Source of the DNA: an uncultured Nitrososphaerota archaeon | GTDB taxonomy: Archaea > Thermoproteota > Nitrososphaeria > Nitrososphaerales > Nitrosopumilaceae | DNA: 64,000 bases | Direction: 5' to 3' | NCBI GenBank assembly: GCA_963701075.1 | Contig: OY969559.1 | Coordinates: forward strand, 1,728,001 to 1,792,000 | Part shown: in pieces, positions 36,906 through 58,471 of the stretch | How the letters are laid out: every line of letters begins with the position of its first letter | Position numbering within the stretch: the first letter of the stretch is position 1 | Program-made: the position numbers and the translations under genes | The notes under the pieces: generated by a model | What the model saw: the letters and a program-made list of their open reading frames with translations, nothing else | Told to the model about the DNA's origin: nothing | Database searches by the model: none

Positions 36906-36992
36906 TCCCAAAATCTGGTCTTTCGTCAATTAGCGGAGTGTGGGAATGAGGAACGAGTGACGAATGTAGCGTAAGACCTGAAAGACCGCTTA
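36906..36992 (+). repeat. dispersed hairpin repeat, full copy
   Basis: TCCCAAAATCTGGTCTTTCGTCAATTAGCGGAG...AGCGTAAGACCTGAAAGACCGCTTA; near-identical to 53014-53100. Confidence 0.9.
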
Positions 36993-36999
36993 GAAAAAC

Positions 37000-37578
37000 T
37001 CACATTCCTCTATGACTTTTAGGAGGCCCAATTTGTATTCTGTATGACTGGGTATCTGCACTCCAAAGCAGAGCAAACCCTGCACCGTGTGGTCTAATCG
37101 CTTCACATGTTTCGGCATCAAGAACGAATTCTGTTTGGAATAATCTGACAGGAGTTCTTGCACCTACCAATGAAGCGTAGATTTCAAGCAGATGTTTTCC
37201 TGATGTAAAACTGAAACCATCAGTCTCGCCTGATAAAAGGAAGTGGTCAAACAAAGTCCGTCCTTCCTCACCAATTTTAACTCCTCCAAGATGAACCTTG
37301 TTTCCCTCAAAGTATATCCATTCACCGAAGGTTGCTACTGACCCATCTCGTATAACTTTGACAAACATAGATTCCACTACTTGACCACGCTTTGCAGTAC
37401 TGTAGAGTAAAGCCGTTACCACTATTTTGAACTGACCGTCATAACCATCTCTTGTAAAGAACAAGGCTGTCGGTCGTGTCAATTTCAAATTTCCTCGTTG
37501 AAAATATGTCAGGTATAATGCAACCATAGAAATGACAAAAGAACCTGATGCAATCGCTAGACTAAACAGATCAACCAT
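37000..37578 (-). CDS. membrane-anchored hypothetical cargo protein
   Basis: N-terminal TM helix then beta-rich domain. Confidence 0.65.
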   Translation of the reverse strand: MVDLFSLAIASGSFVISMVALYLTYFQRGNLKLTRPTALFFTRDGYDGQFKIVVTALLYSTAKRGQVVESMFVKVIRDGSVATFGEWIYFEGNKVHLGGVKIGEEGRTLFDHFLLSGETDGFSFTSGKHLLEIYASLVGARTPVRLFQTEFVLDAETCEAIRPHGAGFALLWSADTQSYRIQIGPPKSHRGM

Positions 37579-37619
37579 TACGCATCTATTCTTTCAAAAT
37601 AATATTAACATGTTGAACT

Positions 37620-38065
37620 ACCCCTGCCAAACGACTATCAACGAAGTTGAAGGAGTGCGGAGTCATCGTCAGATGACGGAGACCCTGCCAAACGAACGTA
37701 GTGAGTGCGGAGCGAAGCGGAGACCCTACGAGCCGACATAATCCGAGCGGAGCGAGGACGAGCCTTGCAAAGCAAGGCGAAGCCCGAGGGTGCGTATACG
37801 CACCCGAGGTGTTATGGAGGGGAGTGCGTAGGGGGTGCGTTCTGACGCACCACCGTAGCCCGTAGCACAGCGTAGGGTGAGGCCTGGAGCAAAAAGAGGG
37901 TGGCTCGAAGAGACGGGTGAATTTTTGCGTAAAGCCAAATACTGCCCTCCATAACAATAGCAATCACGGAACGAGCAAAGCGAGGAGGATTGCGTGGGTT
38001 ATGTCGGCGAGTCATAATTATGGAAGCGAAGTCTCAAGAGGGGTGTCCGAAGGACGGGGTGAATT
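37620..38065. other. GC-rich, extensively self-complementary non-coding region (candidate ssDNA origin or structured RNA)
   Basis: Nested inverted repeats 37732-37744/37996-38008 and 37810-37821/37945-37956, hairpins at 37762, 37788 and 37834, internal direct repeats. Confidence 0.75.
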
Positions 38066-38132
38066 GAGATTGAGCATATCAAAAACAATATTAGAATAAT
38101 CTACAACCAAAATAAGTATAGCAACACGCAAA

Positions 38133-38378
38133 ATGAAAATAATTAATGTTGGATTATCTGCTCTCGGCATGACAATATCATTAATTGGCACTTTTGGACT
38201 ATGGTTCACAACCCACAAATTTTATCTTTGTATAACAAATCCTGCTAATAGCGCAAATTTAACAAATTGTGTAAACATGTCTAGCGAAGATTTTCCCTAT
38301 GTTCTTATGTCAATACTGGGTATCTTCTTACCTATCTTCGCTATGGTATTAACAACAAATCTCAAAAAAGACGATTAA
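38133..38378 (+). CDS. small two-TM cargo protein
   Basis: 81 aa, two hydrophobic helices, Cys pair in the loop. Confidence 0.55.
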   Translation: MKIINVGLSALGMTISLIGTFGLWFTTHKFYLCITNPANSANLTNCVNMSSEDFPYVLMSILGIFLPIFAMVLTTNLKKDD

Positions 38379-38430
38379 AGTTGAGCCTTCGATTCTCTTG
38401 TGATGTGCAAAAGGCAGTGCATTAGCGTTG
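38375..38430 (+). repeat. short-hairpin variant of dispersed repeat
   Basis: TTAAAG-GAGCCTTCG...CTCTTGTGATGTG...GCGTTG, colinear with 38964-39024. Confidence 0.6.
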
Positions 38431-38543
38431 CAAACCACAAAATATAACGTTGTGCAACGTATCTAAGAATAGTCGGAATTTGCCAAAGCGGGGTATAAAT
38501 AACAATAAATAACAATAAATAACTCGGACGCAGTAATTACAGT

Positions 38544-38678
38544 ATGACCAGACATTGGACAGATCAAGAAGTTCAAGCCTTCAAAACATGGAATGAAAAA
38601 CGCAGTTCAGGCGGTTTAGGAAAACCTATGCGTTTTAATAACGTAGATTCTTTGATGAACTGGTTACATGCAAAATAG
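38544..38678 (+). CDS. putative antitoxin (44 aa, not in ORF track)
   Basis: MTRHWTDQEVQAFKTWNEKRSSGGLGKPMRFNNVDSLMNWLHAK; overlaps start of next ORF. Confidence 0.5.
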   Translation: MTRHWTDQEVQAFKTWNEKRSSGGLGKPMRFNNVDSLMNWLHAK

Positions 38679-38961
38679 TAATTGGGAAATCGAAGCCTAT
38701 CCACTCTCAGATTTTAAAAATGAGTTTAATTCTCTAAGTTTACCTGCACAAAATGAAATTGAACAATTACTTCGGGAGTTAGTGGTTTTATCTGACCCAG
38801 AGGATAATGATTGTGCAGTTGATTGCCCAAAATTACCTGGATTCAATAATGCTGTAAAATACATAACCCAAAATGGCGCAATCCTGATTGTTGCTTTAGA
38901 AAGAATAGAACTTGATACTCTTAACACATACACAATAGTCCTTTTCTCCTGTTCTGAATAA
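38668..38961 (+). CDS. RelE/ParE-like small protein (putative toxin)
   Basis: WEIE...DFKNEFNSL...AQNEIEQLLREL N-terminal pattern; 97 aa; coupled to upstream small ORF. Confidence 0.45.
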   Translation: MQNSNWEIEAYPLSDFKNEFNSLSLPAQNEIEQLLRELVVLSDPEDNDCAVDCPKLPGFNNAVKYITQNGAILIVALERIELDTLNTYTIVLFSCSE

Positions 38962-38963
38962 AA

Positions 38964-39024
38964 TTAAGCGAGCCTTCGGCTCACCTCTTGGGATTGTAAG
39001 AAACAGATGTTAAGGCGTTGGATT
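38964..39024 (+). repeat. short-hairpin variant of dispersed repeat
   Basis: TAAGC-GAGCCTTCGGCTC...TTGGGATTGT...GGCGTTGGATT; last 11 nt are the reverse complement of 36427-36437. Confidence 0.7.
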
Positions 39025-39076
39025 TTATTAAATCCCGACAAGACTCTTTTATACTTAGAATTGTCATACACCGTAA

Positions 39077-39460
39077 ATGTATGATATGTCATCAATAAAA
39101 GACAGATTTGATTTATTTCTCAAAGCATCTCTTCACTATAAGAATCGCATAGAGTCTTTATCCCATGATGATGACATGAAAGTATATTGTGAGATAACAA
39201 CGAATTTTTTGAGTAAAGATGTGTCATTATTAGAAGAAATAACCAAGGTCATTAAAAACAAAGATTTACAAAGTTTCAAAGATCAGATGGACAGATACCA
39301 ACCAATTATCTGTTTAGCAATAACATGCTACCTCAAGGATTTACAAAGTTTCAAAGAAAAATTACCGAAGAAATTTGAATATGTTATGCTCACTTCCTTA
39401 CAAACTGTAGCAAAGGAAATCGAAGCCATTGAAGAACTTAAAGCAAGTTTTTGTAGATAA
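39077..39460 (+). CDS. hypothetical helical cargo protein
   Basis: 127-aa AT-rich ORF with its own TATA-like upstream sequence. Confidence 0.55.
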   Translation: MYDMSSIKDRFDLFLKASLHYKNRIESLSHDDDMKVYCEITTNFLSKDVSLLEEITKVIKNKDLQSFKDQMDRYQPIICLAITCYLKDLQSFKEKLPKKFEYVMLTSLQTVAKEIEAIEELKASFCR

Positions 39461-39517
39461 CATTAAAGTGCAAGATCGCCGTATTATAACTGCCTAAGAA
39501 CTAGGCGAGGTGAAACC

Positions 39518-39673
39518 GTGTCAGACAACATCGAGCAGATGGCTTGGAAACTAGTGGAAGAAAACCCACTGTTCAAGCACGCAAAACCATACCTCAAGTA
39601 TCTAGCCATGAAAGAATTGGAATACAAGATACGAAAGGCGGTATGGGAACTCAAAGACCTCTTAAGACAGTAG
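39518..39673 (+). CDS. small hypothetical protein (51 aa, not in ORF track)
   Basis: GAGGTGA SD + GTG; SDNIEQMAWKLVEENPLFKHAKPYLKYLAMKELEYKIRKAVWELKDLLRQ. Confidence 0.5.
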   Translation: MSDNIEQMAWKLVEENPLFKHAKPYLKYLAMKELEYKIRKAVWELKDLLRQ

Positions 39674-39742
39674 CACCTTTCGAGCCACAAGAAAAGTAAG
39701 CGTTCAATCAAGAACGCCCAAAAAGTAATGTGGCTCAACCCA

Positions 39743-40057
39743 TTATTCTCTCAAAAGTCTCTTTAGTTCCTTGATTTTAGACTCGCTCACAACTTCGCTA
39801 TCACTAGAGTCGTTAAGGTAGTGCCATAGTTTCTCTTTAGACCTCTTGAAAATATGGTAACCTATTATGGCAAGCGAGTCAGACGAACCCAGCATAGAGA
39901 TAAAGTCAATCAGTTCTACAAGGCTAATCTCAGAAACAAGATAGAGAACCAGAGCCACTACACCATTAATCAAAAAGAAGGCAATCGCTATCACGACAAT
40001 CTGCGTAAAAGCAATAGCGATTTTATGGTCTTGTCTAAGCCTCATCTTTCTCATCAC
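39743..40057 (-). CDS. small membrane protein of integrated element
   Basis: Two hydrophobic segments and charged tail. Confidence 0.6.
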   Translation of the reverse strand: MMRKMRLRQDHKIAIAFTQIVVIAIAFFLINGVVALVLYLVSEISLVELIDFISMLGSSDSLAIIGYHIFKRSKEKLWHYLNDSSDSEVVSESKIKELKRLLRE

Positions 40058-40295
40058 TTGTTAGTGGCTTTTGCCTGTGCCTTCTCGCTATATGGTCTGC
40101 CAAGTTTTCTGCCGAAAAGAATCTCATGCTACACCCAGCCATACTGCACCTATACTTTGGCTGTTCTTTCTGCTCGCCTCTTGTCTTGAACCAATCCAAA
40201 AGGAGTGTGTTAATCAACTCGTTTGGGTCTATATGCTCTTCTTGTCTGAGACGTGTCAACGCCTCAAAGTTTTGTCTTGTTAGGTATATTTGCAT
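40035..40295 (-). CDS. RHH-like + C2H2 zinc-finger DNA-binding protein
   Basis: QIYLT...INTLL N-domain; CSMAGC...F...L..HIARRH finger. Confidence 0.65.
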   Translation of the reverse strand: MQIYLTRQNFEALTRLRQEEHIDPNELINTLLLDWFKTRGEQKEQPKYRCSMAGCSMRFFSAENLADHIARRHRQKPLTSDEKDEA

Positions 40296-40357
40296 TTTAT
40301 CACCAATAATGATATGATAAAAACATCTAAGAACCCATACGCCAGTTTGCTTTTACT

Positions 40358-40558
40358 TTAATGCTCAAGCACTAACATGAAAACTGCAAAACCTATCATG
40401 AAAAAAATTGGAAACAATTTTTCAAACAGTCTTTCTTTACTTCCTTTTCCAGAATCCTCTATTGCCCATTGATTTTTAGTCTTAGGATAATCTGGGTGTT
40501 TTCTTAGTAGCCTTTCAAAAAGCCACCACATCTGCGAAGCCCTATGATTTCTTGCCAT
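40358..40558 (-). CDS. small C-terminally anchored membrane protein
   Basis: 66 aa, C-terminal TM; overlaps neighbour. Confidence 0.5.
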   Translation of the reverse strand: MARNHRASQMWWLFERLLRKHPDYPKTKNQWAIEDSGKGSKERLFEKLFPIFFMIGFAVFMLVLEH

Positions 40559-40775
40559 TTAAATCCCTGAACTCTATGATGCCAAACTTTTTCTTTACAA
40601 TTATCGCCAGAACAGCAACAACAACCAAGAAAGCAATAGCAACTACAAAGATATTATTATCATGAGTAGCAAACCAACCAACAATCGCAAGAATTTCAAT
40701 TCCAAATACAAACGAAAGTATTTTCTTAAGAAACCTATACAATTCTAAACCGCTTACGCTCTTTCTCAATCTCAT
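40542..40775 (-). CDS. small two-TM protein
   Basis: 77 aa; start overlaps ATPase stop. Confidence 0.55.
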   Translation of the reverse strand: MRLRKSVSGLELYRFLKKILSFVFGIEILAIVGWFATHDNNIFVVAIAFLVVVAVLAIIVKKKFGIIEFRDLNGKKS

Positions 40776-42508
40776 TTCTCAAGTTCCTTTACAGTGTCAG
40801 CCAATTCATTTAACAAAACAATTTTTGTCTTTCCAGCCTCTACACACGAAAGATATGAATATCGTTCACGATCCTGCTCGTTGCAAACTACCGTAATCAC
40901 AAACTTATCAGACGCATTTGTCTTTTGGTCGTATTCAGCAAGGCTCTTCTTTAGCGATGTTTCGCACTCAATATCAAAGCCATCGCATATAATATCCACT
41001 CCTTGATTGATAAAACCAAGTTCATATTTTGCATTAGTCTTTTTCAGAATCACCTCACAGTCTTTGAGCATTGTGCGGTGCAATTGACTCTCTCCATTTG
41101 GGATAGAGAAGTAATATCGTCTAGGCTTCTGTCCCGCCTTCAAGGTTGAAGTTACATACAGTTTTTCACGTATTTTTTCTTCTTTAACAAGACGCTTCAG
41201 GATATTTACTATTCCAAGCCTCTCCATGCTGTTCTTGGGATAGCCTAACGCAGTTGCTATCTCTGAATAATACATACAAAAATCAGATTTTGTCAAAACT
41301 TCTATGACTCTACTTTCAATCTCATTAGCAGTTTCTTTCTCTTTCTTTGCTTCCTCCTTCTGCTCTTCTTCCGTAAAACTTTCGTCAGGTTCGGAACAAA
41401 ATCTAGCCTCTAATTTCGCATTTTCCAAGTTATCATAATTCAATTTCCATACAGGTATCACACCTTCACCATGCTCATACTTCAAATCCATAAATTCAAA
41501 ATCAGAGAGCAATCTCACTCCATCCCTGACATACGCCCCATGCGCTCCCTCAATCGCTTTCATATCTTCATCATTAGAATTACGGAAGCAAAAGACGCTA
41601 CCAAAATGCCCACGATAATCTTTATCGAGATGACAGAAATTTTGAGTTATAATTATTAGATGTATGAAATACGCACCTTGCAAAAGTAGGTTACCGATAA
41701 TAGATTTCTGTTGTTTTGCTTGTAGTAAGTGCCAAGCCTCATCTATGACAATATACAATTTCTTTTCTCTTTGTTCTTGTTCCTCGATCCTGGCAATCTG
41801 TCTTAGATAATATTCTGCAAAGAATGTTTTAACTTCCTCATCTGCTAGATTGCCAAAATCCAACACTATGTCACCCTTTCTGAAATCTATGCTACCAGTT
41901 TTAGCGTTCTTGGTTGCTTCTTCAAGTAGCCTAACCTTACTTTCAACTAAATTTGCTATGTTATTTTCCCAATTGCCTTTTGCGACCTTGTTTAACTTCT
42001 CAAAGAACTCGCTGAAACTCTGAGGCTTCTGCCTCATTACTTCTGCATATCTAGACTTTATTGTATCAATCATCAGTCCTCGACTATTTGCCTCTGCAAA
42101 GAAAGCCGTGCCAAACGCCTCTATTGCACTCTGCGAATCTTCCCAGAAATTCGGTAAATGCTGGCTTACGTCAGTCCAATTATACCCAAAATCAAAATCT
42201 CTTATTTTAAGTTGAAACTTCTTAAATGAGACGATGATTTTTCTTTGTGGTAATTTTATGCAATTATATTCTCCAAGCGAAGTCTTACCCAACCTACTTC
42301 CACCAATAATTTCTGCGTTCCTGTTTGCTTTCGATTGAGTGTACGCAATTAAATCAAAACCTGTCGAATGCACATATTGTTTTTTAATTTGTAAAAAGTT
42401 GTGCAAGTCCTTATTCTCAATCCTACAAATAACCGCAGTAATAGCCACATCAGGCTTATGCCCGTGCTTCCAAAACTTCCAACCCAAAATACTACCACCG
42501 ATCGCCAC
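40772..42508 (-). CDS. HerA/FtsK/VirB4-superfamily ATPase with N-terminal TM, wHTH and PD-(D/E)xK-like C-terminal domain
   Basis: Walker A GGSRLGKT, Walker B IVIDEAW, IIITQ; C-terminal ESQLH...VDII...DIECET; frame stays open upstream through a hydrophobic stretch. Confidence 0.75.
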   Translation of the reverse strand: MAIGGSILGWKFWKHGHKPDVAITAVICRIENKDLHNFLQIKKQYVHSTGFDLIAYTQSKANRNAEIIGGSRLGKTSLGEYNCIKLPQRKIIVSFKKFQLKIRDFDFGYNWTDVSQHLPNFWEDSQSAIEAFGTAFFAEANSRGLMIDTIKSRYAEVMRQKPQSFSEFFEKLNKVAKGNWENNIANLVESKVRLLEEATKNAKTGSIDFRKGDIVLDFGNLADEEVKTFFAEYYLRQIARIEEQEQREKKLYIVIDEAWHLLQAKQQKSIIGNLLLQGAYFIHLIIITQNFCHLDKDYRGHFGSVFCFRNSNDEDMKAIEGAHGAYVRDGVRLLSDFEFMDLKYEHGEGVIPVWKLNYDNLENAKLEARFCSEPDESFTEEEQKEEAKKEKETANEIESRVIEVLTKSDFCMYYSEIATALGYPKNSMERLGIVNILKRLVKEEKIREKLYVTSTLKAGQKPRRYYFSIPNGESQLHRTMLKDCEVILKKTNAKYELGFINQGVDIICDGFDIECETSLKKSLAEYDQKTNASDKFVITVVCNEQDRERYSYLSCVEAGKTKIVLLNELADTVKELEK

Positions 42509-42896
42509 AGCGACAAGCCAATAATGCAGATACGCAAGTAAAGCAAGAGCAGACGCTAACGCAAAGTAGCGTGCAAAATGAACGTCTTTTGGAACATGTC
42601 TTATCTAATCTACCAATAATATTATGCACCAAAATAACTAAATGGCTTTGCATCAACCACACCCTGCAGGAATTTCGTCTAGCGATTTTTTCTTCTTTCT
42701 TTTTTCAAGTATTATCTTGATAAGTTCGTATAACTCTTCAACAGGCATAGTCTCAGCCTTGGCAATCGCATTCTCGCATTCTTCTTCATAACCCAGTAAT
42801 TTATCAAGTTCTAGTGTTTCTTCGTCAGTTACTCGACAATTATACGATGATGGATTTCAAGTCGTTGTCTTACAATTTCAGAAAGTCTAATGCCAC

Positions 42897-44045
42897 TCAT
42901 GCCGTTGTAGTCTCCCCATCATCCAATTTCTTTTTCCATGAATTTACAATGCGTAAAACAACTTCGTGCTCGCTTCTAGAACTTCTAAAAATTTTTTCAA
43001 CCTCATTTTTATGAAGATCGCACCATACGCCCAAGCCACGCTCAAAAAAGTCTTTTTTGTATGACTGTAATTTGTTCCATACATTCTTTCTAGAAATAAT
43101 TATCCTTTCCTCGATTTCTACTCTAGTTGTATCTGTTCTAACCCCTAGTGCGTCTCTTTCAGAGATCACAGAAGTTCTGACATTTGTATTTGTGGCATCT
43201 CTTAATTGAATAACAGGCTGTGGTGGTGGAGGTGGTAAACGTGGTCTTAAACTCCACGCAATAGAGAAGAAAATCGCTACCACAGTCAAACAAATCAATA
43301 CTGCAACGAAGAGCCAGTTATTGAAATGGAAAGCATCATCCTGTTGCCCTGAACTTTGTCCTGTATTTTGTGGCTCATGTGCTTGACTATATGTAGACTC
43401 TGTTCCTAGATTGGAAGAACCAGAAGAGCCAACAGGGGCAGTTGAAGCCGAAGACTCAACAACATCAACATCAGTTAAATTGAATTTTGATTGATATGGA
43501 TTTCCCACCGAATTTATGGCAACAAATGCGAAAATATGCATACTTGGTAATAGATGAATTTCGTTGAATGTGAAACTAGTCGCAGGATAGTATGTTTTTA
43601 AAAATTTTCCATCTTCGTAAAGGTCAATAGAACAAGGGCATAACGTTGCATCTGGTATCCACCCTGCCACAGTAAACTCTTGACCTGCTCCAATAGTTTC
43701 ATTTAGAACCGCAGAATTGATATGAAACTCATTACTATTTTGAACACTTCCCTGTTGTCCTGAATCCTGCGCCTGACCAGAAATCCGCAAATTACTTTTT
43801 TCTTCTACACTTTTAGGGACATAATCATCACAATTCCCATAGTTATCTAATCTATCACAAACCCATCCCGTTGCAGAGCAAGAGCCTAAACCAGCCGAAT
43901 GACTGCACATGTAATTTCCATAATAATTTTCTGCAAATGCAGACTGAATAAATAAAATCAAAAAGAAAAATGAAAGAAGTGTTACGATTTTCAAGATCGC
44001 ACCTCTATTTTTCTTACGAGACTGGCGAGGTAGACATCTCCGCAT
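42897..44045 (-). CDS. exported, Cys-rich, membrane-anchored protein (adhesin/spike-like)
   Basis: Signal peptide, Cys-rich N-domain, Ser/Gly linker, TM helix, poly-Pro, cytoplasmic tail. Confidence 0.65.
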   Translation of the reverse strand: MRRCLPRQSRKKNRGAILKIVTLLSFFFLILFIQSAFAENYYGNYMCSHSAGLGSCSATGWVCDRLDNYGNCDDYVPKSVEEKSNLRISGQAQDSGQQGSVQNSNEFHINSAVLNETIGAGQEFTVAGWIPDATLCPCSIDLYEDGKFLKTYYPATSFTFNEIHLLPSMHIFAFVAINSVGNPYQSKFNLTDVDVVESSASTAPVGSSGSSNLGTESTYSQAHEPQNTGQSSGQQDDAFHFNNWLFVAVLICLTVVAIFFSIAWSLRPRLPPPPPQPVIQLRDATNTNVRTSVISERDALGVRTDTTRVEIEERIIISRKNVWNKLQSYKKDFFERGLGVWCDLHKNEVEKIFRSSRSEHEVVLRIVNSWKKKLDDGETTTA

Positions 44046-44131
44046 TTTTGACGCTGTTCTGGGCTATGTCCTGTATTATCTTCCGTTGGTCTGATGGGAT
44101 TTCCACAAACGATGCAGCGATTATTCGGCAT
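43991..44131 (-). CDS. small zinc-finger protein
   Basis: MPNNRCIVCG...H...KC. Confidence 0.5.
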   Translation of the reverse strand: MPNNRCIVCGNPIRPTEDNTGHSPEQRQKCGDVYLASLVRKIEVRS

Positions 44132-44252
44132 TTCCCTGCGATTCCTTCGGCACATACTTCCAAAGGGAGATGTATCCAATCAGTTCCTCTTTCCCGTCAG
44201 TTCCTTTTTTTACGACTTTTCCCGTATAGGTAGGGCTTGAGTTCTTTGTCAT
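44121..44252 (-). CDS. small hypothetical protein (43 aa, not in ORF track)
   Basis: MTKNSSPTYTGKVVKKGTDGKEELIGYISLWKYVPKESQGNAE; first gene of the minus-strand operon, overlaps next start. Confidence 0.4.
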   Translation of the reverse strand: MTKNSSPTYTGKVVKKGTDGKEELIGYISLWKYVPKESQGNAE

Positions 44253-44339
44253 TAAGGTTGTAATACACCGACTAAATAATTAAAAAGCCAGACCAAAACA
44301 ACCGTTGTCCAGAACGTCGCAGAAAACTTTTTAGCTCTA

Positions 44340-45053
44340 ATGGTCAAAATAGCAACAGTGTCTAATAGAGTCAACCAACCTCCAGATCCTTTCAAACATC
44401 TAGAAACATCTCAACGTCCTCCATCTTCCACAAATCTCCTAAAAGCAGAACAGTGGATTATTTTCACCCTACTTGTCGCAGACGAATTTGAATTTGATGC
44501 TGACTTTAATTTAAAAACAAAACAGTCTCACAGCAGATTATCAGTAAATGAACTTGTTAGGGCAGTCCAGAAAAATCTTAAACAATTCCAACCTGACGCT
44601 AAAATCTCAGAAACCACAATCAAAAACGCAAGACTTCATCTTGTAGAATTAGGCGTAATCAAAGAAATTCATGACAAAAAGAGCAATATCAAAAACCCTC
44701 CTACCGTGAGTTATCTTAACTATGGCAATCCATATGTTAAGTCACAGATTCAACATGAAAGACAAGAAGAATTTGAAAAAAGAATCATACCAAAATTAAA
44801 ACATGGTGTTTATCTTAAGTATTTAACAGAATTAAATTTCTATCAGACGCTATTAAGATTGATAGTGAATTCTAATGATAGACATTACTGGCAAGAACAC
44901 TCCATGGACATTCCATATCATTTCAATGGCATTACTGAAGAAGCAAAACAAGAGATATTATCTAACATAGAGGATTTAATTCAAGATAAGAAGGACGAAG
45001 TAAAAAAATTACTTGATAAATACAATAACAAAAAAATACGACTTACTCAATAA
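44340..45053 (+). CDS. winged-helix protein, divergent regulator candidate
   Basis: LSVNELV...ISETTIKNARLHLVELGVI wHTH pattern. Confidence 0.6.
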   Translation: MVKIATVSNRVNQPPDPFKHLETSQRPPSSTNLLKAEQWIIFTLLVADEFEFDADFNLKTKQSHSRLSVNELVRAVQKNLKQFQPDAKISETTIKNARLHLVELGVIKEIHDKKSNIKNPPTVSYLNYGNPYVKSQIQHERQEEFEKRIIPKLKHGVYLKYLTELNFYQTLLRLIVNSNDRHYWQEHSMDIPYHFNGITEEAKQEILSNIEDLIQDKKDEVKKLLDKYNNKKIRLTQ

Positions 45054-45056
45054 TCA

Positions 45057-46130
45057 TTACTTCTCTTTACCTAAAAGTTCATACAAATTACGAATATCTT
45101 GTTTCAGTTCAGCAATTTCTCGGTCTTTATTGTCTTGTAGTTCAGATATTTTTTCTTGTTGATTCTGAATAATTCTCTGGCTCTCATCAATCATCAACGT
45201 ATTCATGTGCTTGGCATATTCACCGAGCAGTTGAGCTGCACTTGGTTTGAAATACGAATTGTCAAGTTTTACCACTCCTGAATGTCCTGCAAGCTTTTCA
45301 ATTAAGGAAATATTAGCATTATCTGCACTCTTGCACAAAGTGATAAATCGTGTCCGATAACTATGGCTCATCGCCTGCGAATGCCTGACATACTTTCCGT
45401 AATTTTTCCCCCTGACTTTGCACGCCATTCGATACAAGACCAGCTTTATCGAAGTGTAGCTCATGGGTTTGACAGGCTCTATACCAATTCTAAAAGAAGA
45501 CCGCAATAAAGGGCTTGAACCCTTGATGCTTTCTCCAACAGTTCTACGGCTTTCAATATACGAATCCAGTAGTTTTGAGCAAGACGCATTTACGAATGCT
45601 ATGTATTCATCTTTCGTTCCAAAATACACAATAATTTTTTTGCAACCATATTCTACATTAGAAACATGTTCTATTTTCAGCAGAGGCAAAGACCCAACTC
45701 TGACTCCGCTTGCGCACAAGATATTTACGATTAGTTTGTTTCGCAGACTTTCGCCGTCCAGCATGGTCTTGATTTGTTCATTACTCCAAAATCCACCGCC
45801 TCCTGCCTTTGAGGTTTCTGGATACATCTTTTTCAATTTTTTAATCCGCACTTCCTTATCGTTCAAAGTAAGAAATAGATCAATCGCATTAATCTGCGTC
45901 CGTATAGAACTTGTGGATAATCTCTTTTTCATGTGAAACAAATAGTCTTCTAAAATCTGTTGCAGAAAATCCGTCTTTAGTTGTAATAGTCCTTCTGGAG
46001 TAGAAATCTTAGCCCATTCACAAAACTTTCTTAGTGCATAGTGGTAAGCCTTCCTCGTGGCCTCTGACTTTATCGCATTATCAAAAACCAACATAGCCCT
46101 GTTTTCCACATATCCTTTACCATTCCACAA
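45057..46130 (-). CDS. tyrosine recombinase/integrase
   Basis: Catalytic R (SGVRVG), K (GTKD), HxxR (HSYR), H (LAGH), Y (NSYF). Confidence 0.9.
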   Translation of the reverse strand: MWNGKGYVENRAMLVFDNAIKSEATRKAYHYALRKFCEWAKISTPEGLLQLKTDFLQQILEDYLFHMKKRLSTSSIRTQINAIDLFLTLNDKEVRIKKLKKMYPETSKAGGGGFWSNEQIKTMLDGESLRNKLIVNILCASGVRVGSLPLLKIEHVSNVEYGCKKIIVYFGTKDEYIAFVNASCSKLLDSYIESRRTVGESIKGSSPLLRSSFRIGIEPVKPMSYTSIKLVLYRMACKVRGKNYGKYVRHSQAMSHSYRTRFITLCKSADNANISLIEKLAGHSGVVKLDNSYFKPSAAQLLGEYAKHMNTLMIDESQRIIQNQQEKISELQDNKDREIAELKQDIRNLYELLGKEK

Positions 46131-46192
46131 TAATTAAGCTTCATATCGCCAAACTATATCAAGTGGTAAAGCTTCAGCTCTTGTGAATACAT

Positions 46193-50006: not shown

Positions 50007-50024
50007 TTATTGTCAGATCCTCGT

Positions 50025-50438: not shown

Positions 50439-51129
50439 ATGGCAAGCGTTCTGGCAATACAGAATACAAGAAATGAAGGAATTGCCACGCTAGGCAAGTT
50501 ATTTGAAGAAGACGGTTTTAGCATTACAACAGTTCTTGCAAAAAAAGAAAAAATCCCGTCAATTGACCCCCGTGTCATAGTAATACTTGGTGCGCCAGAG
50601 AGTGCAAACGATGACCTACCTTACCTCAAAGAAGAGATGGTATTGATACAAAATGCAGCCAAAAATAATACCCCGGTTCTTGGAATATGCCTTGGGTCGC
50701 AGCTTATCGCCAAGGCATTTGGTGCCAAGGTCTACCAAGGCAAGAGAAAGGAGATAGGATTCTATCACGACATAGAGTTTGACAACACTACAAAATCAAG
50801 GCTCTTCCAAGGAATGCAGAGTCCTGCCACCGTATTTCATTGGCATGGAGATACGTTTGATCTTCCCGATAATGCCATAAGGCTTGCCCATTCAAAAGAC
50901 TATCAGAATCAAGCAATAAAGGTTGGAAGCGCAGTAGGGGTACAGTTTCATCTAGAGGTAGACGAGCCCACAATCCAGTTATGGCTTGACAAATCCAAAG
51001 ATGAGCTGAAGTTCGGTACCATACATTAGGCCTGAAGAGATAGTCAAGAGTATCCCTCAAAATATCAATACCGTACAAAACAACATGCGAATATTTTACC
51101 AAAATTTCAAGTCAGAGTTTAATCTTTGA
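50439..51129 (+). CDS. type 1 glutamine amidotransferase (frameshift near 51010)
   Basis: GICLGSQ, HWHGD, QFHLE; C-terminus continues in another frame. Confidence 0.82.
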
Positions 51130-51199
51130 TAAAAGTTACTGGTATCATTTCTGAGAATCGTCTTCTTTCAATAAATACAAAGAAACATACCGCCATCAC

Positions 51200-52755: not shown

Positions 52756-52981
52756 TCCTGCAACAAGATAGGAAAATGTATTTTTGGTCGTCTCAGATCA
52801 ATACACTTCACAGTATGCAGCATATTAGTAGAAAGGACGAATATCAACAATAATAACAAGAGATCATCTCAAAACCCCCGTTAATCAGAAATGATTAACT
52901 ATGATCCTTTTTTGTCAAGATATATTTTCCTGCATTCTGACAGAAGTTTAATGCCGTATTAAACTCTCTTAAACTCATTCC

Positions 52982-53388: not shown

Positions 53389-53856
53389 TTAGTGGTTATA
53401 TGTAGGAATTATGCGAATAGTTTTTTCCATCGTATTGCCAAGAAACGAAATGCCGATTTTATAAATTCCTTCCTCATAGATAGCTAAACTTCCTAGACTA
53501 CCTTCGGTAAGATGCCAATTTTGAGTTACTGTCCAAGAGTTAGTCACAATATCACAATACATCGGATCTAGTCTGCTTGTCCATATGATGGTTCCATTTT
53601 CACTGGTTACAACCACGGATGGTCTTGAACACTGTTTCGAAGTAGTTGTTATGTTAAATTCAATTGGTTGACCTACTAGATATTGGTCATTCAGAATATC
53701 AACACTGAGTTTTATGCCGGTAGAATTTCTTTGAAATATGGAAATTTCGGAATTTTGTTGACTCACGATACTAGATTCCATAAAATACAACGCGAATCCC
53801 GCGATAGCTAATATGACAAGTCCTATTATAGTGAACACGGGAAGATAAAATCTCAT
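53389..53856 (-). CDS. membrane-anchored exported hypothetical protein
   Basis: N-terminal TM, Ig-like beta pattern with Cys pair. Confidence 0.65.
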   Translation of the reverse strand: MRFYLPVFTIIGLVILAIAGFALYFMESSIVSQQNSEISIFQRNSTGIKLSVDILNDQYLVGQPIEFNITTTSKQCSRPSVVVTSENGTIIWTSRLDPMYCDIVTNSWTVTQNWHLTEGSLGSLAIYEEGIYKIGISFLGNTMEKTIRIIPTYNH

Positions 53857-53966
53857 CTTGTTAAGTGGATAATTTGTACAATTTAAGAATTATGAAAGAT
53901 TGTTCTTTTATCTCAAAGAATATTTTCAAAACTGAAAATTATTTTAAAATAAAGTTGGGTAGTTGG

Positions 53967-54950: not shown

Positions 54951-55094
54951 GTCCAGTACATGCTAATAAAACGGGCAGTTCATCATGGTTAGAAATAGTT
55001 AGATTCTAGTGCAATTGAACACAATACATTGCATGAAACACTCATAACGCTAGTTGGAATATTATTGTTCACTGCGACATTTGAATCTTTGATT
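54939..55094. repeat. ~155-bp imperfect direct repeat, copy 1 (promoter + regulator 3' remnant)
   Basis: Colinear with 56511-56666 at a constant offset of 1572. Confidence 0.85.
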
Positions 55095-55185
55095 CTACAA
55101 AAATGATGATATTCACCACCTATTCACTAAATTATTTTATGCATAATAAAAATAAAAAAGAAAATGAAGGGTTGTAGTTTTTCCG

Positions 55186-55719
55186 TTATTGTTGTACTTC
55201 TAGATTGAGAGGAATGCCGGAAGCTTTACCATCTCCTTCAAACATAACTATTGTGAGAAGATACATGCCAGGTTTGGTATCTTGGGATACTGAAATGCTC
55301 AAATTGGTCGTATCTCTTTTTGTTATAGTTATTCCGCTTGTTCCAAGTGATGGAAGATTGACAACGGTCTTATCTAATGTTGCAGATATTCCCGCGGGTA
55401 GGCTAGCCTGCCCTCCATGAATTAACCCTAAATGGTCATTCATGAGTGTTACACCTATTTTTGCTTGTAAGGCATCTGGCGAAGCAAAGATTCCTACTGG
55501 AATGACAGTACTCTGTCCAGCCTTAAGTACAATGTTCCTATCAGGAACATTCAACGCGAATGGGATTTTCTGGGACGCTGGTTGTTGTGCATCTGCCTTC
55601 TGACCAAAGAAGTTTTGTACAGATGCATCATGTGATTCAAACACAACTGCGGTTACAACTAATATTGCGATAGCAGATACAGCATACAATGATTTTTTAT
55701 GTGTGTTCAATTTTATCAT
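55186..55719 (-). CDS. exported Ig-like protein
   Basis: N-terminal TM; ISVSQDTKPGMY motif. Confidence 0.65.
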   Translation of the reverse strand: MIKLNTHKKSLYAVSAIAILVVTAVVFESHDASVQNFFGQKADAQQPASQKIPFALNVPDRNIVLKAGQSTVIPVGIFASPDALQAKIGVTLMNDHLGLIHGGQASLPAGISATLDKTVVNLPSLGTSGITITKRDTTNLSISVSQDTKPGMYLLTIVMFEGDGKASGIPLNLEVQQ

Positions 55720-55722
55720 CTC

Positions 55723-56394
55723 TTATTTGTAACACGATCCATCGTCACATATTGTCATACTGTTCGTTTCCGCGTAACCACTACTAGTACCGCCCCAGTA
55801 ATATGCTTCTGACGTTGACGGATTTCCTCCTCCTTGTGCCTGCGCATCATTGAAAACTCCTTCGTAGAATGTGTTGCTTCCGCTATTCACAAGGCTACAA
55901 TCTGTATAGTACGAACCTGATACACTTCCGCTGGTGTTGACAGGCGAACTGTCACAATATCCAACGAAGCCATTCTGGTCGTACATATCCACCTCAGTAG
56001 TCATTGCTACATAACCCGAACTTGATATCGTGTCTTGACCATAATAGCTAATGTTTGCATTATAATCTATGGTGGATGCAGAAGATGATATCGAGGGACT
56101 TGAACCGACACTGGTTCCATCATAATTATTGTAAGCTGTTGCTTCACTAACAGTCGAACTTGTTGATATTGCTACGAGTTGGTCTATACCACTGGATGGT
56201 GCATATGCACATGCCGCGGACGAACCAGTACACTGTCCATTAGAATAACTTGGTACTTCCTCGGTTAATGTCCATGGTCCACTTGATGTGTCACTTGTTG
56301 CAAATGCTGGAATTACTGAAACACCTAACAATAGTGCTGTGAATATAGTCACAATTCCTGTTAAAGCTTGTGGCTTTTCATTCTGTATTTTCAT
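55723..56394 (-). CDS. secreted Ser/Tyr-rich acidic protein
   Basis: Signal peptide ending PAFA; six Cys. Confidence 0.65.
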   Translation of the reverse strand: MKIQNEKPQALTGIVTIFTALLLGVSVIPAFATSDTSSGPWTLTEEVPSYSNGQCTGSSAACAYAPSSGIDQLVAISTSSTVSEATAYNNYDGTSVGSSPSISSSASTIDYNANISYYGQDTISSSGYVAMTTEVDMYDQNGFVGYCDSSPVNTSGSVSGSYYTDCSLVNSGSNTFYEGVFNDAQAQGGGNPSTSEAYYWGGTSSGYAETNSMTICDDGSCYK

Positions 56395-56510
56395 TTTGGA
56401 TCATTTTTCTCCTTTTGCTTTTTCCATATGAAGGGACTTTATCTTCATACCACACATATGAACATCTGTGTCATACGAATAACACATCTCATAGTGGTTA
56501 ATGTTAAGCA

Positions 56511-56666
56511 TGTCCTGTTCATGTCCAGTACATGCTAATAAAACGGGCAGTTCATTATAGTTAGAAATAGTTAGCTTCTAGTGCAATCGAACACAGAGTG
56601 TTGCTTGAAATATTCACAACGCTATTTGAAATATTATTGTTCTCTGCGATGTTTGAATTTTTATTG
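56511..56666. repeat. ~155-bp imperfect direct repeat, copy 2
   Basis: Colinear with 54939-55094; overlaps the 3' end of 56614..57177. Confidence 0.85.
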
Positions 56667-57177
56667 GCTCTTTTATGGTACAATCAATTAGTGATTTGAT
56701 AAACTCTCCAAGAAATACAGAATACTTTTCGTTGATGTTGTGAGGTATTGAAAACCAATGAATGGAGCCGTGGCTTTTATGCTCATAGCCTGCAAACCTG
56801 CCTGACCACATCTCCAAGAACTGCAAAATAGTACTCTTGTTTATGTCATGATATAGCAACCTCATGTATTCTACTGCGTTGTGCGACCCTAGCTTTTTTG
56901 CCAGCTGAATAATCTCTTTATCATCAACTAGCTCAAACAGTCCTTTTAGTGCATCATTTGGTGTTAACGTAGAATCAATCTTGTCGAAATTTACCTTGAA
57001 GGCATGTTCCTTTATCATTTGATTTAATGTCATGTTTATTGAGACGCTCTTCTTTTTTGCTTCTTTTTCCAATAACTCGTACGAATCAGGTTCTATGCGA
57101 AAGGTGTGAGATACTGGTCTTTTTGCATTCTTGTCCATTATCATGAAGATTACATCAAGATCGTACGTACGGTACAC
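56614..57177 (-). CDS. ribbon-helix-helix transcription factor (thaumarchaeal RHH + ligand-domain type)
   Basis: HTFRIE...LEKEAKKKSVSINMTLNQMI. Confidence 0.72.
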   Translation of the reverse strand: MYRTYDLDVIFMIMDKNAKRPVSHTFRIEPDSYELLEKEAKKKSVSINMTLNQMIKEHAFKVNFDKIDSTLTPNDALKGLFELVDDKEIIQLAKKLGSHNAVEYMRLLYHDINKSTILQFLEMWSGRFAGYEHKSHGSIHWFSIPHNINEKYSVFLGEFIKSLIDCTIKEPIKIQTSQRTIIFQIAL

Positions 57178-57205
57178 AAACTATTTTAGGGTTACGTATT
57201 ATAGT

Positions 57206-58290
57206 TAGGAGTTACGCAGTTGACCTTCACAAGATAGCCTAAGGATTCATTCCATAAATCTTAGATCCAAGACGATCCCCTCTTTGCAATGAACCAATCA
57301 AGATGTGATGTACTAGACTACATACAGTTCCTCATAGCATCCCAGAAGACCTTTACATGTACAGAGGCTGCAAGATGCCAGCCCGTGGAGCTGTACAAAA
57401 TCCCATCCCATGACTCCTTTACGCGCCTTCTACAACGACAGACTCAAGACACTGAGACGGTTTGGAAGGAAGCAAAGGCAATGATAGGAAGCGGGGGTGT
57501 TATTGTAGTCGACGATACCACTCTTGACAAGCCGTATGCCTCAAAGATGGACCTTGTAACATGGCACTGGAGTGGCAAGCACAGATGTGTGGTCAAGGGA
57601 ATAAACCTCATCACGCTTCTGTGGACAGATGGAAAAAAGCGCGTACCGTGTGATTGCAGGATCTACGACGCACCTGTCACAGGTCTTACAAAGAACGACC
57701 GCTTCCAGGAGATGCTGGTAAAGGCCAGGCAGAGAGGCATGAATCCGCTGTATGTGCTCTTTGACAGTTGGTACTGCAGCATTGGAAACCTCCATCTTGT
57801 CGCAAAGCTTGGATGGTATTTTCTGACAAGGCTGAAAAGCAACAGGACTGTCAGTCTGAAAGATGGTAAGAACGTGTCAGTGAGTAGCATGGAAATACCA
57901 AAGCATGGAAGAACAGTCTACCTCAAAGAGTACGGAACCATAAAGGTATTCAGGACAGTTTCCAAAAACGGAGACGCTGAGTACTGGGCAACAAACAATC
58001 TGTCAATGAATGCGGTAAGAAGGGAGGAGCTTGAAAAACATGGATGGTCAGTAGAGGTGTATCACCGTGGAATCAAGCAGTGCTGTGGTATTGAAAGGTC
58101 GCATGTCAGAAAGGCAAGATCGATAATCAGTCACATACTCTTGTCTGTCAGGGCTTTTCTGCGTCTTGAGGCATACCGGATAGAGACAGGGACGAGCTGG
58201 TATGAGGCAAAGAGTGCCATAATCCGGTATGCGATACGGAACTATCTATCCCGTCCGTTCTGTCATTTGGGCTCAACTGCGTAACTCCTA
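57206..58290 (+). mobile_element. IS701-family insertion sequence, 1085 bp
   Basis: 18-bp TIR TAGGAGTTACGCAGTTGA (57206-57223 / 58273-58290); 5-bp ATAGT duplication (57201-57205 / 58291-58295). Confidence 0.9.
57289..58284 (+). CDS. IS701-family DDE transposase
   Basis: VDDTTLDKPY, FDSWY, WSVEVYHRGIKQ motifs. Confidence 0.9.
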   Translation: MNQSRCDVLDYIQFLIASQKTFTCTEAARCQPVELYKIPSHDSFTRLLQRQTQDTETVWKEAKAMIGSGGVIVVDDTTLDKPYASKMDLVTWHWSGKHRCVVKGINLITLLWTDGKKRVPCDCRIYDAPVTGLTKNDRFQEMLVKARQRGMNPLYVLFDSWYCSIGNLHLVAKLGWYFLTRLKSNRTVSLKDGKNVSVSSMEIPKHGRTVYLKEYGTIKVFRTVSKNGDAEYWATNNLSMNAVRREELEKHGWSVEVYHRGIKQCCGIERSHVRKARSIISHILLSVRAFLRLEAYRIETGTSWYEAKSAIIRYAIRNYLSRPFCHLGSTA

Positions 58291-58361
58291 ATAGTATTGT
58301 AATATATATAAAAAATATAGATTAGTGTTTCATAAATCAAGATTGTATCAATGCTTCACGC

Positions 58362-58471
58362 TCACATCCCAAAATCTGGTCTTTCGTCAATTAGCGGAGC
58401 CTGTCAAAACTGCTGTTTTGATAAAACTTTTCCTAAAAGTTTTGCAGAGCGTAAGACAGGAAGACCGCTTA
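58362..58471 (+). repeat. dispersed hairpin repeat with replaced central region
   Basis: Same arms as 36906/53014, but centre is two AT-rich hairpins (TCAAAAC-GTTTTGA; AAAACTTTT-AAAAGTTTT). Confidence 0.9.

Follow-up and report, generated by a model that had tools for sequence, protein, structure and literature searches.

Integron attC sites are imperfect hairpins in which some bases bulge out, the centre varies, and RYYYAAC and GTTRRRY boxes pair at the foot of the stem. In bacterial integrative elements the att core is accompanied, on its int-distal side, by a conserved non-coding segment that acts in cis, and in ICE/CIME accretion the integrase-less, att-flanked remnants keep this segment and accumulate in tandem at one site. 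Sites of the oriT type fold on one strand only; we know of no defined transfer origin in archaea, and any comparison with oriT is therefore by analogy only. REP/BIME and MITE-type repeats are short imperfect palindromes which follow stop codons, often between convergent genes, and form mosaics with small motifs. For thaumarchaeal tyrosine-recombinase elements, the available text of Krupovic et al. (2019, PMC6563490) describes short direct repeats, intergenic targets and the tandem re-use of one site.

We analyzed a window of 64,000 nucleotides from an uncultured Nitrososphaerota archaeon (genome G000), in which an original prediction had seen a dispersed hairpin repeat with fixed arms and a swappable centre, behaving as a cassette recombination site behind cargo genes. 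We argue, at a probability of roughly one half, that the repeat is a conserved but optional non-coding module of small tyrosine-integrase elements and of integrase-less remnants in this archaeal genus. It resembles attC in shape, and by that analogy a cassette-site role is a candidate only.

Anatomy and distribution of the repeat

The window holds three full copies of the repeat and one left-half copy:

36428..36483, plus strand: left-half copy, a pyrimidine-rich leader ('ext', from CCAAC) with the truncated left arm GGTCTTTCGTCAAT
36897..36992, plus strand: repeat copy 1, centre type A, short leader, covariance-model match of 101 bits
52985..53100, plus strand: leader and repeat copy 2, centre type A, covariance-model match of 104 bits at 53005-53100
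58358..58471, plus strand: repeat copy 3, short leader, covariance-model match of 76 bits

The repeat is 95-160 bases long and has hairpin-forming arms. As originally predicted, the three full copies have their arms in common: the 22-nt left arm occurs exactly at 36917, 53025 and 58378 on the plus strand (expected 0, from 100 shuffles), and the right arm is exact at 36968, has one mismatch at 53076 and is one base shorter in copy 3. Copies 1 and 2 are 92% identical across 88 nt; copies 2 and 3 are identical over 38 nt, after which the centre is wholly unlike, copy 3 having the arms of copy 2 around a unique centre with two hairpins. The centre is indeed swappable, as it occurs as types A, B and C and with insertions. 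Around this variable interior the arms make up an inverted repeat, imperfect and about 19 nt long, with GGTCTTTC/GAAAGACC as the stem base and CT, AA and G as bulges. Conserved flanks, TCCCAAAATCT on the 5' side and GCTTA on the 3' side, reach beyond the inverted repeat, and the right edge of the module is sharp, at GCTTA.

The heptamers GTTGGAT and GTTAGAT do occur in gene orientation, as reverse complements of ATCCAAC (36428) and ATCTAAC (52983). The copy that had been placed at 36427 is present and carries GTTGGAT, but it proved to be a left half only, which ends at 36483 and is homologous to the leader of L016 and L017. It had been conceded that a canonical RYYYAAC partner box is missing and that this is not a standard attC, and we agree, as the base of the stem shows no paired R'/R'' boxes: TCCCAAAATCT has no complement in the 3' flank, and GTTGGAT, some 65 nt away from the stem, is without a partner.

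The repeat is real and lineage-specific. The covariance-model scan proposed with the original prediction found 13 carriers among 63 genomes of the genus and, as a weak match, one among 150 other genomes of the order. Carrier genomes have 1-6 copies spaced 0.4-16 kb, and every copy seen in the scanned genomes lay in variable DNA, none in a core intergenic region. G000 carries 5-6 copies; beyond the window there are copies at 1221452-1221549 (minus strand), 1870255 (a left half) and 1871068 (a short form). Rfam 15 gave no match at gathering scores across the window and none at E <= 1 across five copy-bearing loci, and a search of the window for tRNA and tmRNA found none. Part of the evidence comes from unpublished genomes, namely G034 (one of three complete elements), G011 (an array of two copies, and two compensatory changes) and, for synteny, G028 and G019.

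Carrier islands and their att sites

All copies in the window fall within two strain-specific insertions, the first of which, element 1, is made up as follows:

36391..36398: attL core, left 8-bp direct repeat ATCAAGTG
36399..46157: integrated element 1, 9.76 kb, missing from most relatives
36415..36424, plus strand: TGAAGCTTAA, one half of an inverted repeat (the other half at 46134-46143), 16 nt away from the core
36454..36753, minus strand: 99-aa ORF without family match, its last 10 codons overlapping the truncated left arm
37000..37578, minus strand: 192-aa cargo ORF with an N-terminal hydrophobic stretch and no family, stop 7 nt right of copy 1
40772..42508, minus strand: 578-aa ATPase (AAA_10, weak CedB match), common to the three complete elements
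45057..46130, minus strand: 357-aa tyrosine recombinase, start 27 nt from the right att core
46134..46143, plus strand: TTAAGCTTCA, P-side half of that inverted repeat, 14 nt away from the core
46158..46165: attR core, right direct repeat ATCAAGTG

By Pfam and NCBIfam, element 1 encodes hypothetical genes, a CedB/VirB4-like ATPase and the integrase. In relatives window 34001-36401 joins 46158-48728, and the empty site ...TTAATCAAGTGGTAAAGC... is uninterrupted in 10 of them. With an integrase, flanking direct repeats and an empty site all present, 36399-46157 is a tyrosine-integrase integrative element, of which TGAAGCTTAA would form the P' side of attP. The element in G083, which has the closest relative of this integrase (68% identity), carries a corresponding pair, AAGTTTAAA/TTTAAACTT, whose members stand 18 and 19 nt away from the core; it has the same P' arm and leader and no hairpin, from which it follows that the leader belongs to the arm and that the hairpin is separable. 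Comparison of occupied and empty loci demonstrates, at the level of sequence, that integration of these elements is ordinary recombination, at att cores which are short, are specific to the locus and have flanking inverted repeats of their own.

The second insertion, island 2 (51138-59383, 8.2 kb), has no integrase and is flanked by TTTGAyAAAAGTT:

51125..51137: left direct repeat TTTGATAAAAGTT, with the empty site in G034, G013, G011, G063 and G022
52937..52952: third, internal att-like copy CTGACAGAAGTTTAAT, dividing the island into two units
57200..58296, plus strand: DDE-transposase IS, just left of copy 3
58483..59391, minus strand: 302-aa cargo ORF with a WING-49 domain, stop 11 nt right of copy 3
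59384..59400: right direct repeat TTTGACAAAAGTTTAAT

The internal copy CTGACAGAAGTTTAAT recurs together with its spacer in L006 and L225, and repeated att-core arrays are found, besides island 2, at a 'U' hot spot in G000, G027 and metagenome contigs.

Copies 1 and 3 lie behind minus-strand stops, 7 nt from that at 37000 and 11 nt from that at 58483, as had been noticed from the letters; for copy 2 the nearest next ORF is 288 nt away. Over all, a minus-strand ORF ends within 70 nt right of the repeat in 18 of 24 contexts, and the ORFs right of the module are mutually unrelated, with no common BLASTP family, which upholds the description of the adjoining accessory genes as unrelated. Three complete elements (in G000, G033:C111 and G034:C70; that of G033 flanked by the repeat GTGAACAAGGCTTAA) have integrase family F1 and ATPase F5 in common and carry the full module at the end opposite to the integrase, 8.1-9.3 kb from it and 0.5-1.1 kb inside attL, not directly at attL. 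At G035:C32 the module is followed by cargo of about 4 kb, an integrase fragment of 95 aa and then core genes. Synteny breaks near the module, as the original prediction would have it: in 8 of 14 loci synteny with the G000 core ends 30-92 nt upstream. There is no clear att core alongside copies 1 and 3 (ATCAAGT at 36812 is one of five such 7-mers in 24 kb) and none upstream of copy b at G011:C4, and at G000:1221452 the cargo lies left of the hairpin.

On the proposed reading, the module would consist of the pyrimidine-rich leader from CCAAC, the motif CCCAAAATCT and the imperfect inverted repeat around a replaceable centre, and would sit at the integrase-far end just inside attL, with the att region on one side of it and, on the other, the 3' end of the last cargo gene that reads leftward. 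If the same att sites were used again and again and decay set in afterwards, several module copies in the same orientation would be left behind, which may account for the three copies in two islands of the window. The hairpin would probably be a cis-acting site read as single-stranded plus strand, and to an RNA we prefer a site for processing the DNA of the element (in transfer, in the priming of replication or as an accessory to recombination).

Like the thaumarchaeal cryptic integrated elements (PMC6563490), element 1 is about 10 kb long, with a terminal integrase, short direct repeats, an intergenic target and genes mostly of unknown function; on the other hand, the available text of that paper describes no conserved hairpin-bearing non-coding end module, which is present here. 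As with attP arms and in ICE/CIME accretion, the module lies beside att on the int-distal side and is kept in tandem integrase-less remnants. Unlike in oriT and ICE systems, no relaxase, Rep, excisionase or other single-strand-DNA enzyme was recognised in the element, and the hairpin is optional within an integrase subfamily. The link between the module and integrase family F1 is loose: the integrase family occurs in 34 of 63 genomes and the repeat in only 13, and module-adjacent integrases are only 38-40% identical mutually, no closer than the integrases of module-less elements.

A possible strand preference of the hairpin and a possible transcript-level role

It had been claimed that two stem substitutions keep G-T pairs on one strand only, and this we confirmed, GAAAGATC in copy 2 and GGAAGACC in copy 3 each giving a G-T/T-G pair on the plus strand only. 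The arms can pair, and base changes preserve pairing on the strand opposite to the coding strand of the neighbouring gene. Pairing is kept in 95% of 282 alignment cells, and wobble cells number 24 on the plus strand against 6 on the minus strand, most of the 6 in register-shifted rows; this asymmetry amounts, by our estimate, to roughly 7 independent changes. Changes on both sides of the stem were found in L018 (ATC/GAT) and L171b (GAC/GTC and CTAT/ATAG). A strong fold was not borne out by RNAalifold, whose consensus reaches only -0.79 kcal/mol and is in a different register, or by single-sequence energies. The differing centre of the 58.4-kb copy is structured, as had been stated, since it folds independently (z = -2.49 against shuffles), but copies 1 and 2 fold no better than shuffles (z = +1.37 and +0.97). 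The covariation shuffle control was not significant, the observed value being reached in 303 of 500 shuffles. In the alignment the stem changes favor plus-strand pairing, but folding energy and covariation are weak.

Plus-strand changes compatible with G-U pairs are what an RNA helix predicts, and the module might act at the transcript level, either as a small plus-strand RNA that starts in the leader and overlaps the cargo gene's 3' end in antisense, or as the 3' end or terminator of the leftward cargo operon, where on the gene strand AGAUUUUGGG comes after the hairpin. Many long copies have, just upstream of CCAAC, an A/T box that resembles a TATA box (TAAAy or TATAAC, read by eye), and the location right after stop codons suits a 3'-end signal. 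The gene strand even has the geometry of a terminator, in which the stem is followed by AG (2 nt) and a conserved TTTT, the T4 run being kept in hairpin-less leader copies too. We nevertheless hold a transcript-level role to be unlikely, as no Rfam family was matched even at E <= 1, energies and consensus fold are weak, and the plus-strand hairpin has no T-run behind it. The terminator version meets two further objections: on the gene strand the base changes would amount to A-C mismatches (24 cells against 6), so that pairing is not preserved there, and a loop of 55-100 nt is unlike those of known terminators. Furthermore, the stems are conserved in sequence and not merely in pairing, which suggests recognition by a protein or as DNA.

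Homology breakpoints and the likeness to attC

The original prediction was right that the site lies in mobile DNA which can carry a non-IntI tyrosine recombinase, and it went on to propose that this enzyme may serve the repeat as a cassette site. In such an arrangement the plus-strand hairpin, opposite to the cargo coding strand, would be recognised by its structure, and crossover at CCCAAAAT would swap or capture the cargo to its right. Set beside integron attC sites (see also Ghaly et al., 2022, PMC9668308), the repeat is like attC in being an imperfect, bulged hairpin with a variable centre, in base changes that keep pairing opposite to the cargo coding strand, and in standing immediately behind the 3' ends of accessory genes that are unrelated, all in one orientation and not far from a tyrosine recombinase.

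Breakpoints of homology do cluster at CCCAAAAT, the gene-distal 5' base of the hairpin, and for this reason capture at the hairpin keeps some plausibility; they cluster also after AATTAGCG and after GCTTA. L224 and L225 have the left side in common up to AATTAGCG and differ in centres and right flanks, and between L225 and L048 the hairpin is cleanly present or absent between CCCAAAAT and ACCCTTCTAACAT. Short-leader copies (1, 3, L226 and L227) begin at TCCCAAAATCT, and leader-only copies stop at CAAAAT(C)A. Arrays of 2-3 copies spaced 0.4-5.3 kb likewise recall cassettes. However, the breakpoints are scattered over at least six positions in all, and between one copy and the next there are 0-7 genes, lying on both strands, with att cores in places.

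The integrase itself speaks against the proposal. Its crossovers are ordinary 8-18-bp direct repeats with inverted repeats of their own, about 30 nt or more outside the repeat, and the element of its 68%-identical relative has no hairpin, so that neither the cassette site served by the integrase nor the integrase-hairpin link was upheld. It carries Pfam Phage_integrase and SAM-like domains; its best NCBIfam match, XerA, scores 61.7 bits against a cut-off of 220, XerC, XerD and PRK00283 are likewise far below their cut-offs, and no integron-integrase model is among the NCBIfam matches at E <= 0.01. Unlike in integrons, the repeat has no paired RYYYAAC/GTTRRRY boxes, there is no attI or promoter platform, copies are few and widely spaced, and the carrier islands have conventional att repeats. 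The same pattern is also expected if different elements merely have one conserved module in common: being the most conserved segment between unrelated cargo, the module would be where homology between elements starts and stops, and this would give the look of fixed arms with swappable contents. We therefore consider a cassette-site role improbable, although, if true, ordinary integrative-element tyrosine recombinases would swap and capture cargo, the islands would be modular gene-capture platforms, and the repeat would be an archaeal, non-integron counterpart of attC.

It is very doubtful that the repeat is a miniature non-autonomous insert (MITE/PATE-like, or a REP/BIME-like mosaic) landing by itself in element ends with its arms as terminal inverted repeats, because, for all its likeness to such repeats (an imperfect palindrome after stop codons with a variable interior and a sharp right edge, mosaics with the leader, 'tail' and U modules, and the clean hairpin indel of L048 against L225), its conserved flanks exceed the inverted repeat, its very low copy number is confined to variable islands, and there is no consistent target duplication. 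The single possible duplication is at TTCCAAT, where leader, copy 2 and the next 17 nt (to 53116) form a block between 52978 and 53117 which is absent from the matching metagenome locus L225, and a deletion by microhomology would explain it just as well. Of the 63 genomes, 5 have Y1-transposase genes and 4 of these 5 have the repeat, but no hairpin stands beside any Y1 gene and G000 has no such gene despite its 5-6 copies. The two IS types of the window have unrelated ends, and the DDE-transposase IS has three 100%-identical copies elsewhere in the genome.

Copies of the repeat in the window and the insertions that carry them

The original prediction described three full copies of a hairpin repeat with constant arms, and their positions were borne out: the 22-nt left arm, for which the chance expectation is none, has exact + strand occurrences at 36917, 53025 and 58378. 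For the right arm, the match is perfect at 36968 and off by one mismatch at 53076, and the arm of the 58.4-kb copy is 1 base shorter. Copies 1 and 2 share 92% identity over 88 nt. Between copies 2 and 3, a stretch of 38 identical nt gives way to completely different sequence until similarity resumes at AGAGCGTAAGAC, which agrees with the swapped centre claimed for the 58.4-kb copy. We also found a fourth copy, left half only, consisting of the leader and GGTCTTTCGTCAAT. The genome G000, a single contig of 1.916 Mb in which the window occupies 1728001-1792000, holds further copies at 1221452-1221549 (-), 1870255 (left half) and 1871068 (short form). Aligning copies from relatives defined a larger unit, the module. 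A run of 12 C lies at 36870-36881, ~25 nt upstream of copy 1, between it and a 99-aa ORF.

Features of the window
36399-46157, element 1, an integrase element
36428-36483 (+), left-half copy
36897-36992 (+), copy 1
45057-46130 (-), tyrosine recombinase
48729-50006, TnpB-only IS (Cas12f1-like TNB domain) whose 24-bp terminal inverted repeats are perfect and whose duplication, TTATTGTC, is 8 bp long
51138-59383, island 2, an integrase-less insertion
53005-53100 (+), copy 2
57200-58296, DDE-transposase IS, just left of copy 3
58358-58471 (+), copy 3

Parts of the module, in order
Pyrimidine-rich leader, ~45-70 nt, starting with CCAAC(G)C
CCCAAAATCT, nearly invariant
Left arm, GGTCTTTCGTCAATTAGCG
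Centre, of variable type: type A (copies 1 and 2), type B, a unique centre with two hairpins (copy 3), an insertion plus A (locus L022) or a 12-nt stub (locus L012)
Right arm, AGCGTAAGAC-nn-GAAAGACC
Right edge, sharp, at GCTTA

When the window was compared by DNA searches with 40 relatives, 34001-36401 adjoined 46158-48728 directly in most of them, and ten empty sites of the form ...TTAATCAAGTGGTAAAGC... were obtained, some of these sites and of the synteny rows used below coming from unpublished genomes (G011, G019, G028, G034 and G012). Therefore, the window contains a 9.76-kb insertion, 36399-46157, with ATCAAGTG at 36391 and again at 46158. This element 1 encodes hypothetical proteins (conserved ones among them at ORFs 42897-44045 and 44340-45053), a 578-aa AAA_10 ATPase weakly matching CedB and the tyrosine recombinase, whose start lies 27 nt from the right att core (the short direct repeat at the junctions). 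As a thaumarchaeal cryptic integrated element it is of the ordinary kind. We recognised no ssDNA enzyme in element 1, and PDB sequence searches with three element proteins gave nothing informative. A third att core, ATCAAGT at 36812, was rejected as background, since five such 7-mers occur in 24 kb.

Island 2 is flanked by TTTGAyAAAAGTT, and its site is empty in G034, G013, G011, G063 and G022, where 50006-51137 adjoins ~59384 onward; a third att-like copy, at 52937, precedes the copy 2 leader by ~50 nt. Both IS elements are later arrivals. The TnpB IS is missing at the same site in relatives and has three other copies in G000, 87-91% identical, and the DDE IS, a recent burst, has three 100%-identical copies near 455959, 646390 and 1636640 of that genome. 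An origin of the repeat from either was rejected, given the terminal inverted repeats and duplication of the first and the unrelated sequence of the second. Island 2 also holds a 152-nt direct repeat, 87% identical (54939-55090 and 56511-56662), near the starts and ends of hypothetical minus-strand genes. Beyond it, an ADP-forming acyl-CoA synthetase-like gene (ATP-grasp_5, CoA_binding, Succ_CoA_lig) appears as two overlapping ORFs, 59479-59820 and 59813-61612, with the ATP-grasp domain split at ~59815; a frameshift, whether accidental or programmed, or an error in sequencing could account for this. Elsewhere in the window, imperfect 12-15-nt repeats of the TTTCTTTTCTTC type form a long run at 17092-17410, which probably codes, on the minus strand, for low-complexity protein rich in lysine and glutamate.

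Distribution in relatives and relation to the integrase

Of 36 relatives in the same genus, 10 have the left arm, and none of 24 genomes of other genera has it. The covariance-model scan proposed in the original prediction, carried out with a model termed R1, matched 13 of the 63 genus genomes with 1-6 copies each and gave one weak match (28.5 bits) among 150 other genomes of the order. Exact matches of the repeat numbered only four in metagenome contigs and none in viral contigs, and matching public contigs are titled Nitrosotalea, Thaumarchaeota or Nitrosopumilaceae. As predicted, the repeat lies behind unrelated genes: in 18 of 24 contexts the stop of a minus-strand ORF is at most 70 nt from the right edge, and these ORFs belong to different BLASTP families, with Pfam domains such as zinc ribbon, NHL, MG2 and TPR, or with none. 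Small winged-helix genes (Pfam HTH_45, ~90-105 aa) recur a few kb from the repeat, with 11 members in the 24 contexts (e.g., L171 8715-9008 and L173 14986-15303).

At 14 loci the left flank is syntenic to G000, and synteny stops upstream of the model start, by 30-92 nt in eight and by 138-1520 nt in the remaining six. Three complete elements (G000, G033:C111 and, from an unpublished genome, G034:C70) have integrase family F1 and ATPase family F5 in common, and in all three the module stands at the opposite end, 8.1-9.3 kb from the integrase. The G033 element is an 11.5-kb insertion with GTGAACAAGGCTTAA on both flanks, and contig G035:C32 reads module, ~4 kb, a 95-aa integrase fragment, core genes.

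The original prediction had the recombinase at 45057 possibly serving the hairpin, which is not upheld by its relatives. Integrase homologues (E <= 1e-20) occur in 34 of the 63 genomes, far more than carry the module, and the closest, at 68% identity in genome G083, sits in a 12-kb element with the same ATPase and two small ORFs. At the integrase-distal end of that element, the att core is followed after 16 nt by TGAAGTTTAAACAAAT and a leader that starts with CCAACAC; the hairpin's place is then taken by motif U (33 nt, a T-run followed by a small hairpin). R1 with filters off found no hairpin in this element or at three other integrase loci, the best score being 18.8 bits. Thus, in this integrase subfamily the leader is part of the P' arm, whereas the hairpin is an addition that can be separated from it. 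The att core is bracketed by an inverted repeat in G000 (TTAAGCTTCA / TGAAGCTTAA, at 14 and 16 nt) and in G083 (TTTAAACTT / AAGTTTAAA, at 19 and 18 nt), where we place putative recombinase-binding sites. G000 has two more integrase genes of this family, 35-38% identical (C1:1225463-1239101 and near 564801-565823). The former lies terminally in a 13.6-kb insertion that shows in comparison with G035; their far ends have neither hairpin nor leader.

Pairing of the arms and possible roles

Paired with each other, the arms would give 8 + 3 + 3 + 1-2 base pairs, interrupted by the bulges CT, AA and G. Pairing holds in 95% of 282 cells from 19 copies, as against 35-50% with the partner slid, and this figure mostly reflects sequence conservation, because both-sided change was seen in one pair only and the shuffle control was not significant. 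More diverged copies contribute two further compensatory changes, GAC/GTC and CTAT/ATAG, both in L171b, and these changes, like a two-copy array, come from the unpublished genome G011. The one-sided changes are biased: with eight truncated sources and duplicate rows dropped, 25 distinct full-length rows gave 302 Watson-Crick cells, 24 G-T/T-G cells on the + strand, 6 wobble cells on the - strand (most of them in rows shifted one base in register), 13 other mismatches and 5 gaps. We estimate ~7 independent one-sided stem events, all in the + direction. However, neither strand of copies 1 and 2 folds better than shuffled sequence, and the RNAalifold consensus, at -0.79 kcal/mol, uses the second AAGAC in another register. 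The earlier proposal of pairing on the non-coding strand agrees with the wobble bias and finds weak backing in fold energies and covariation; since the bias stands against those energies and the weak consensus, the data no more than suggest that the + strand pairs.

We consider the module to be a cis-acting but optional part of the ends of these integrative elements and of their remnants, and to be read from the + strand, most likely as DNA, with a probability of about 0.5. Its context at such ends is well supported, while we infer the function. A role in a transcript, as antisense RNA or a 3'-end signal, is a possible but unlikely alternative: T4 follows the stem on the gene strand, yet for a 3'-end signal the base changes point to the other strand. 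An attC-like exchange site, the analogy drawn in the original prediction, retains its likeness in shape, strand and position but fails both sequence-defined tests run, i.e., paired R boxes and an integron-type integrase, and we regard it as improbable. Ghaly et al. 2022 (PMC9668308) take attC folding and an IntI with its additional domain as the defining marks of archaeal integrons; Thaumarchaeota and Nitrososphaeria have no occurrence in the main text of that paper, whose data tables may list taxa. Least probable among these readings is a miniature mobile insert.

Other candidates were rejected. No tRNA or tmRNA was found as target, and no tRNA gene lies over any copy. Rfam gave no match at gathering scores or at E <= 1, its small ribozyme families included; a hammerhead-like GUC...CUGA...GAAA failed by eye, as did C/D-box, H/ACA and K-turn, for which boxes, ACA tail or in-register tandem G-A pairs were lacking. 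As for a coding remnant, a minus-strand frame is open through the left arm (..LIDERPDFG..), yet the right arm falls in different frames in types A and B, and therefore there is no conserved peptide. The centre as a guide for target choice was dismissed, as G034 and G011 have types A and B at one and the same position of the chromosome. Y1 transposase genes are present in 5 of 63 genomes, four of which carry the module, G000 itself having none, and no Y1 gene has the hairpin beside it, which speaks against a RAYT/Y1 link.

To our knowledge, few mobile elements of ammonia-oxidising archaea have been characterised, and we know of no cis-acting sites for their movement. In a soil archaeal genus, R1 offers a sequence handle on one family of elements, marking the end away from the integrase in these and in their decayed remnants, and the module also marks sites of strain-specific surface and secreted-type genes. 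If read single-stranded, the hairpin would be either the first candidate for a thaumarchaeal transfer or replication site, or a non-integron attC-like exchange site, or a mobile-element-borne RNA. If without function, it would still be a practical marker for island boundaries and, because many copies sit at contig ends, for assembly breaks.

Possible rearrangement at the module

Short-leader copies (copies 1 and 3 and loci L226 and L227) start at TCCCAAAATCT, and leader-only copies end at CAAAAT(C)A. The metagenome loci L224 and L225 have everything in common up to AATTAGCG and continue with centres A and B and different right flanks. Between CCCAAAAT and ACCCTTCTAACAT, the hairpin alone shows clean presence/absence (L048 versus the first leader of L225). 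Leader, hairpin and 17 nt together are present in the window and absent from L225, between two TTCCAAT copies, and at G000:1221452 a 714-aa ORF lies between leader start and hairpin. Serial integration at re-used att sites with later decay would account for these patterns, as would exchange between elements at their one conserved segment and, less probably, recombination at the hairpin itself. Re-use of sites by tyrosine-recombinase elements has been described (PMC6563490).

Motif U is conserved across the genus directly after a core-gene stop, often twice, 0.5-1.2 kb apart, around small strain-specific inserts; in G000 its two occurrences are C1:1870207-1870239 (L191 4207-4239) and L191 5146-5178. 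Integrative elements, that of G083 among them, carry it as well, and the order hairpin, 17-19 nt, U is common to G000, G027 and two metagenome contigs. U looks like a separate integration hot spot. The tail, a further conserved module (ACCCTTCTAACAT...AACCCCTTTTTGCCTA), comes after the hairpin or after a leader that lacks it (L171 11372-11567, from the unpublished G011; L225/L224), and more small repeats (GAAACCCCTTTT, a short hairpin) are found beyond the tail. The ends of the islands look like mosaics in which several short repeat modules are combined.
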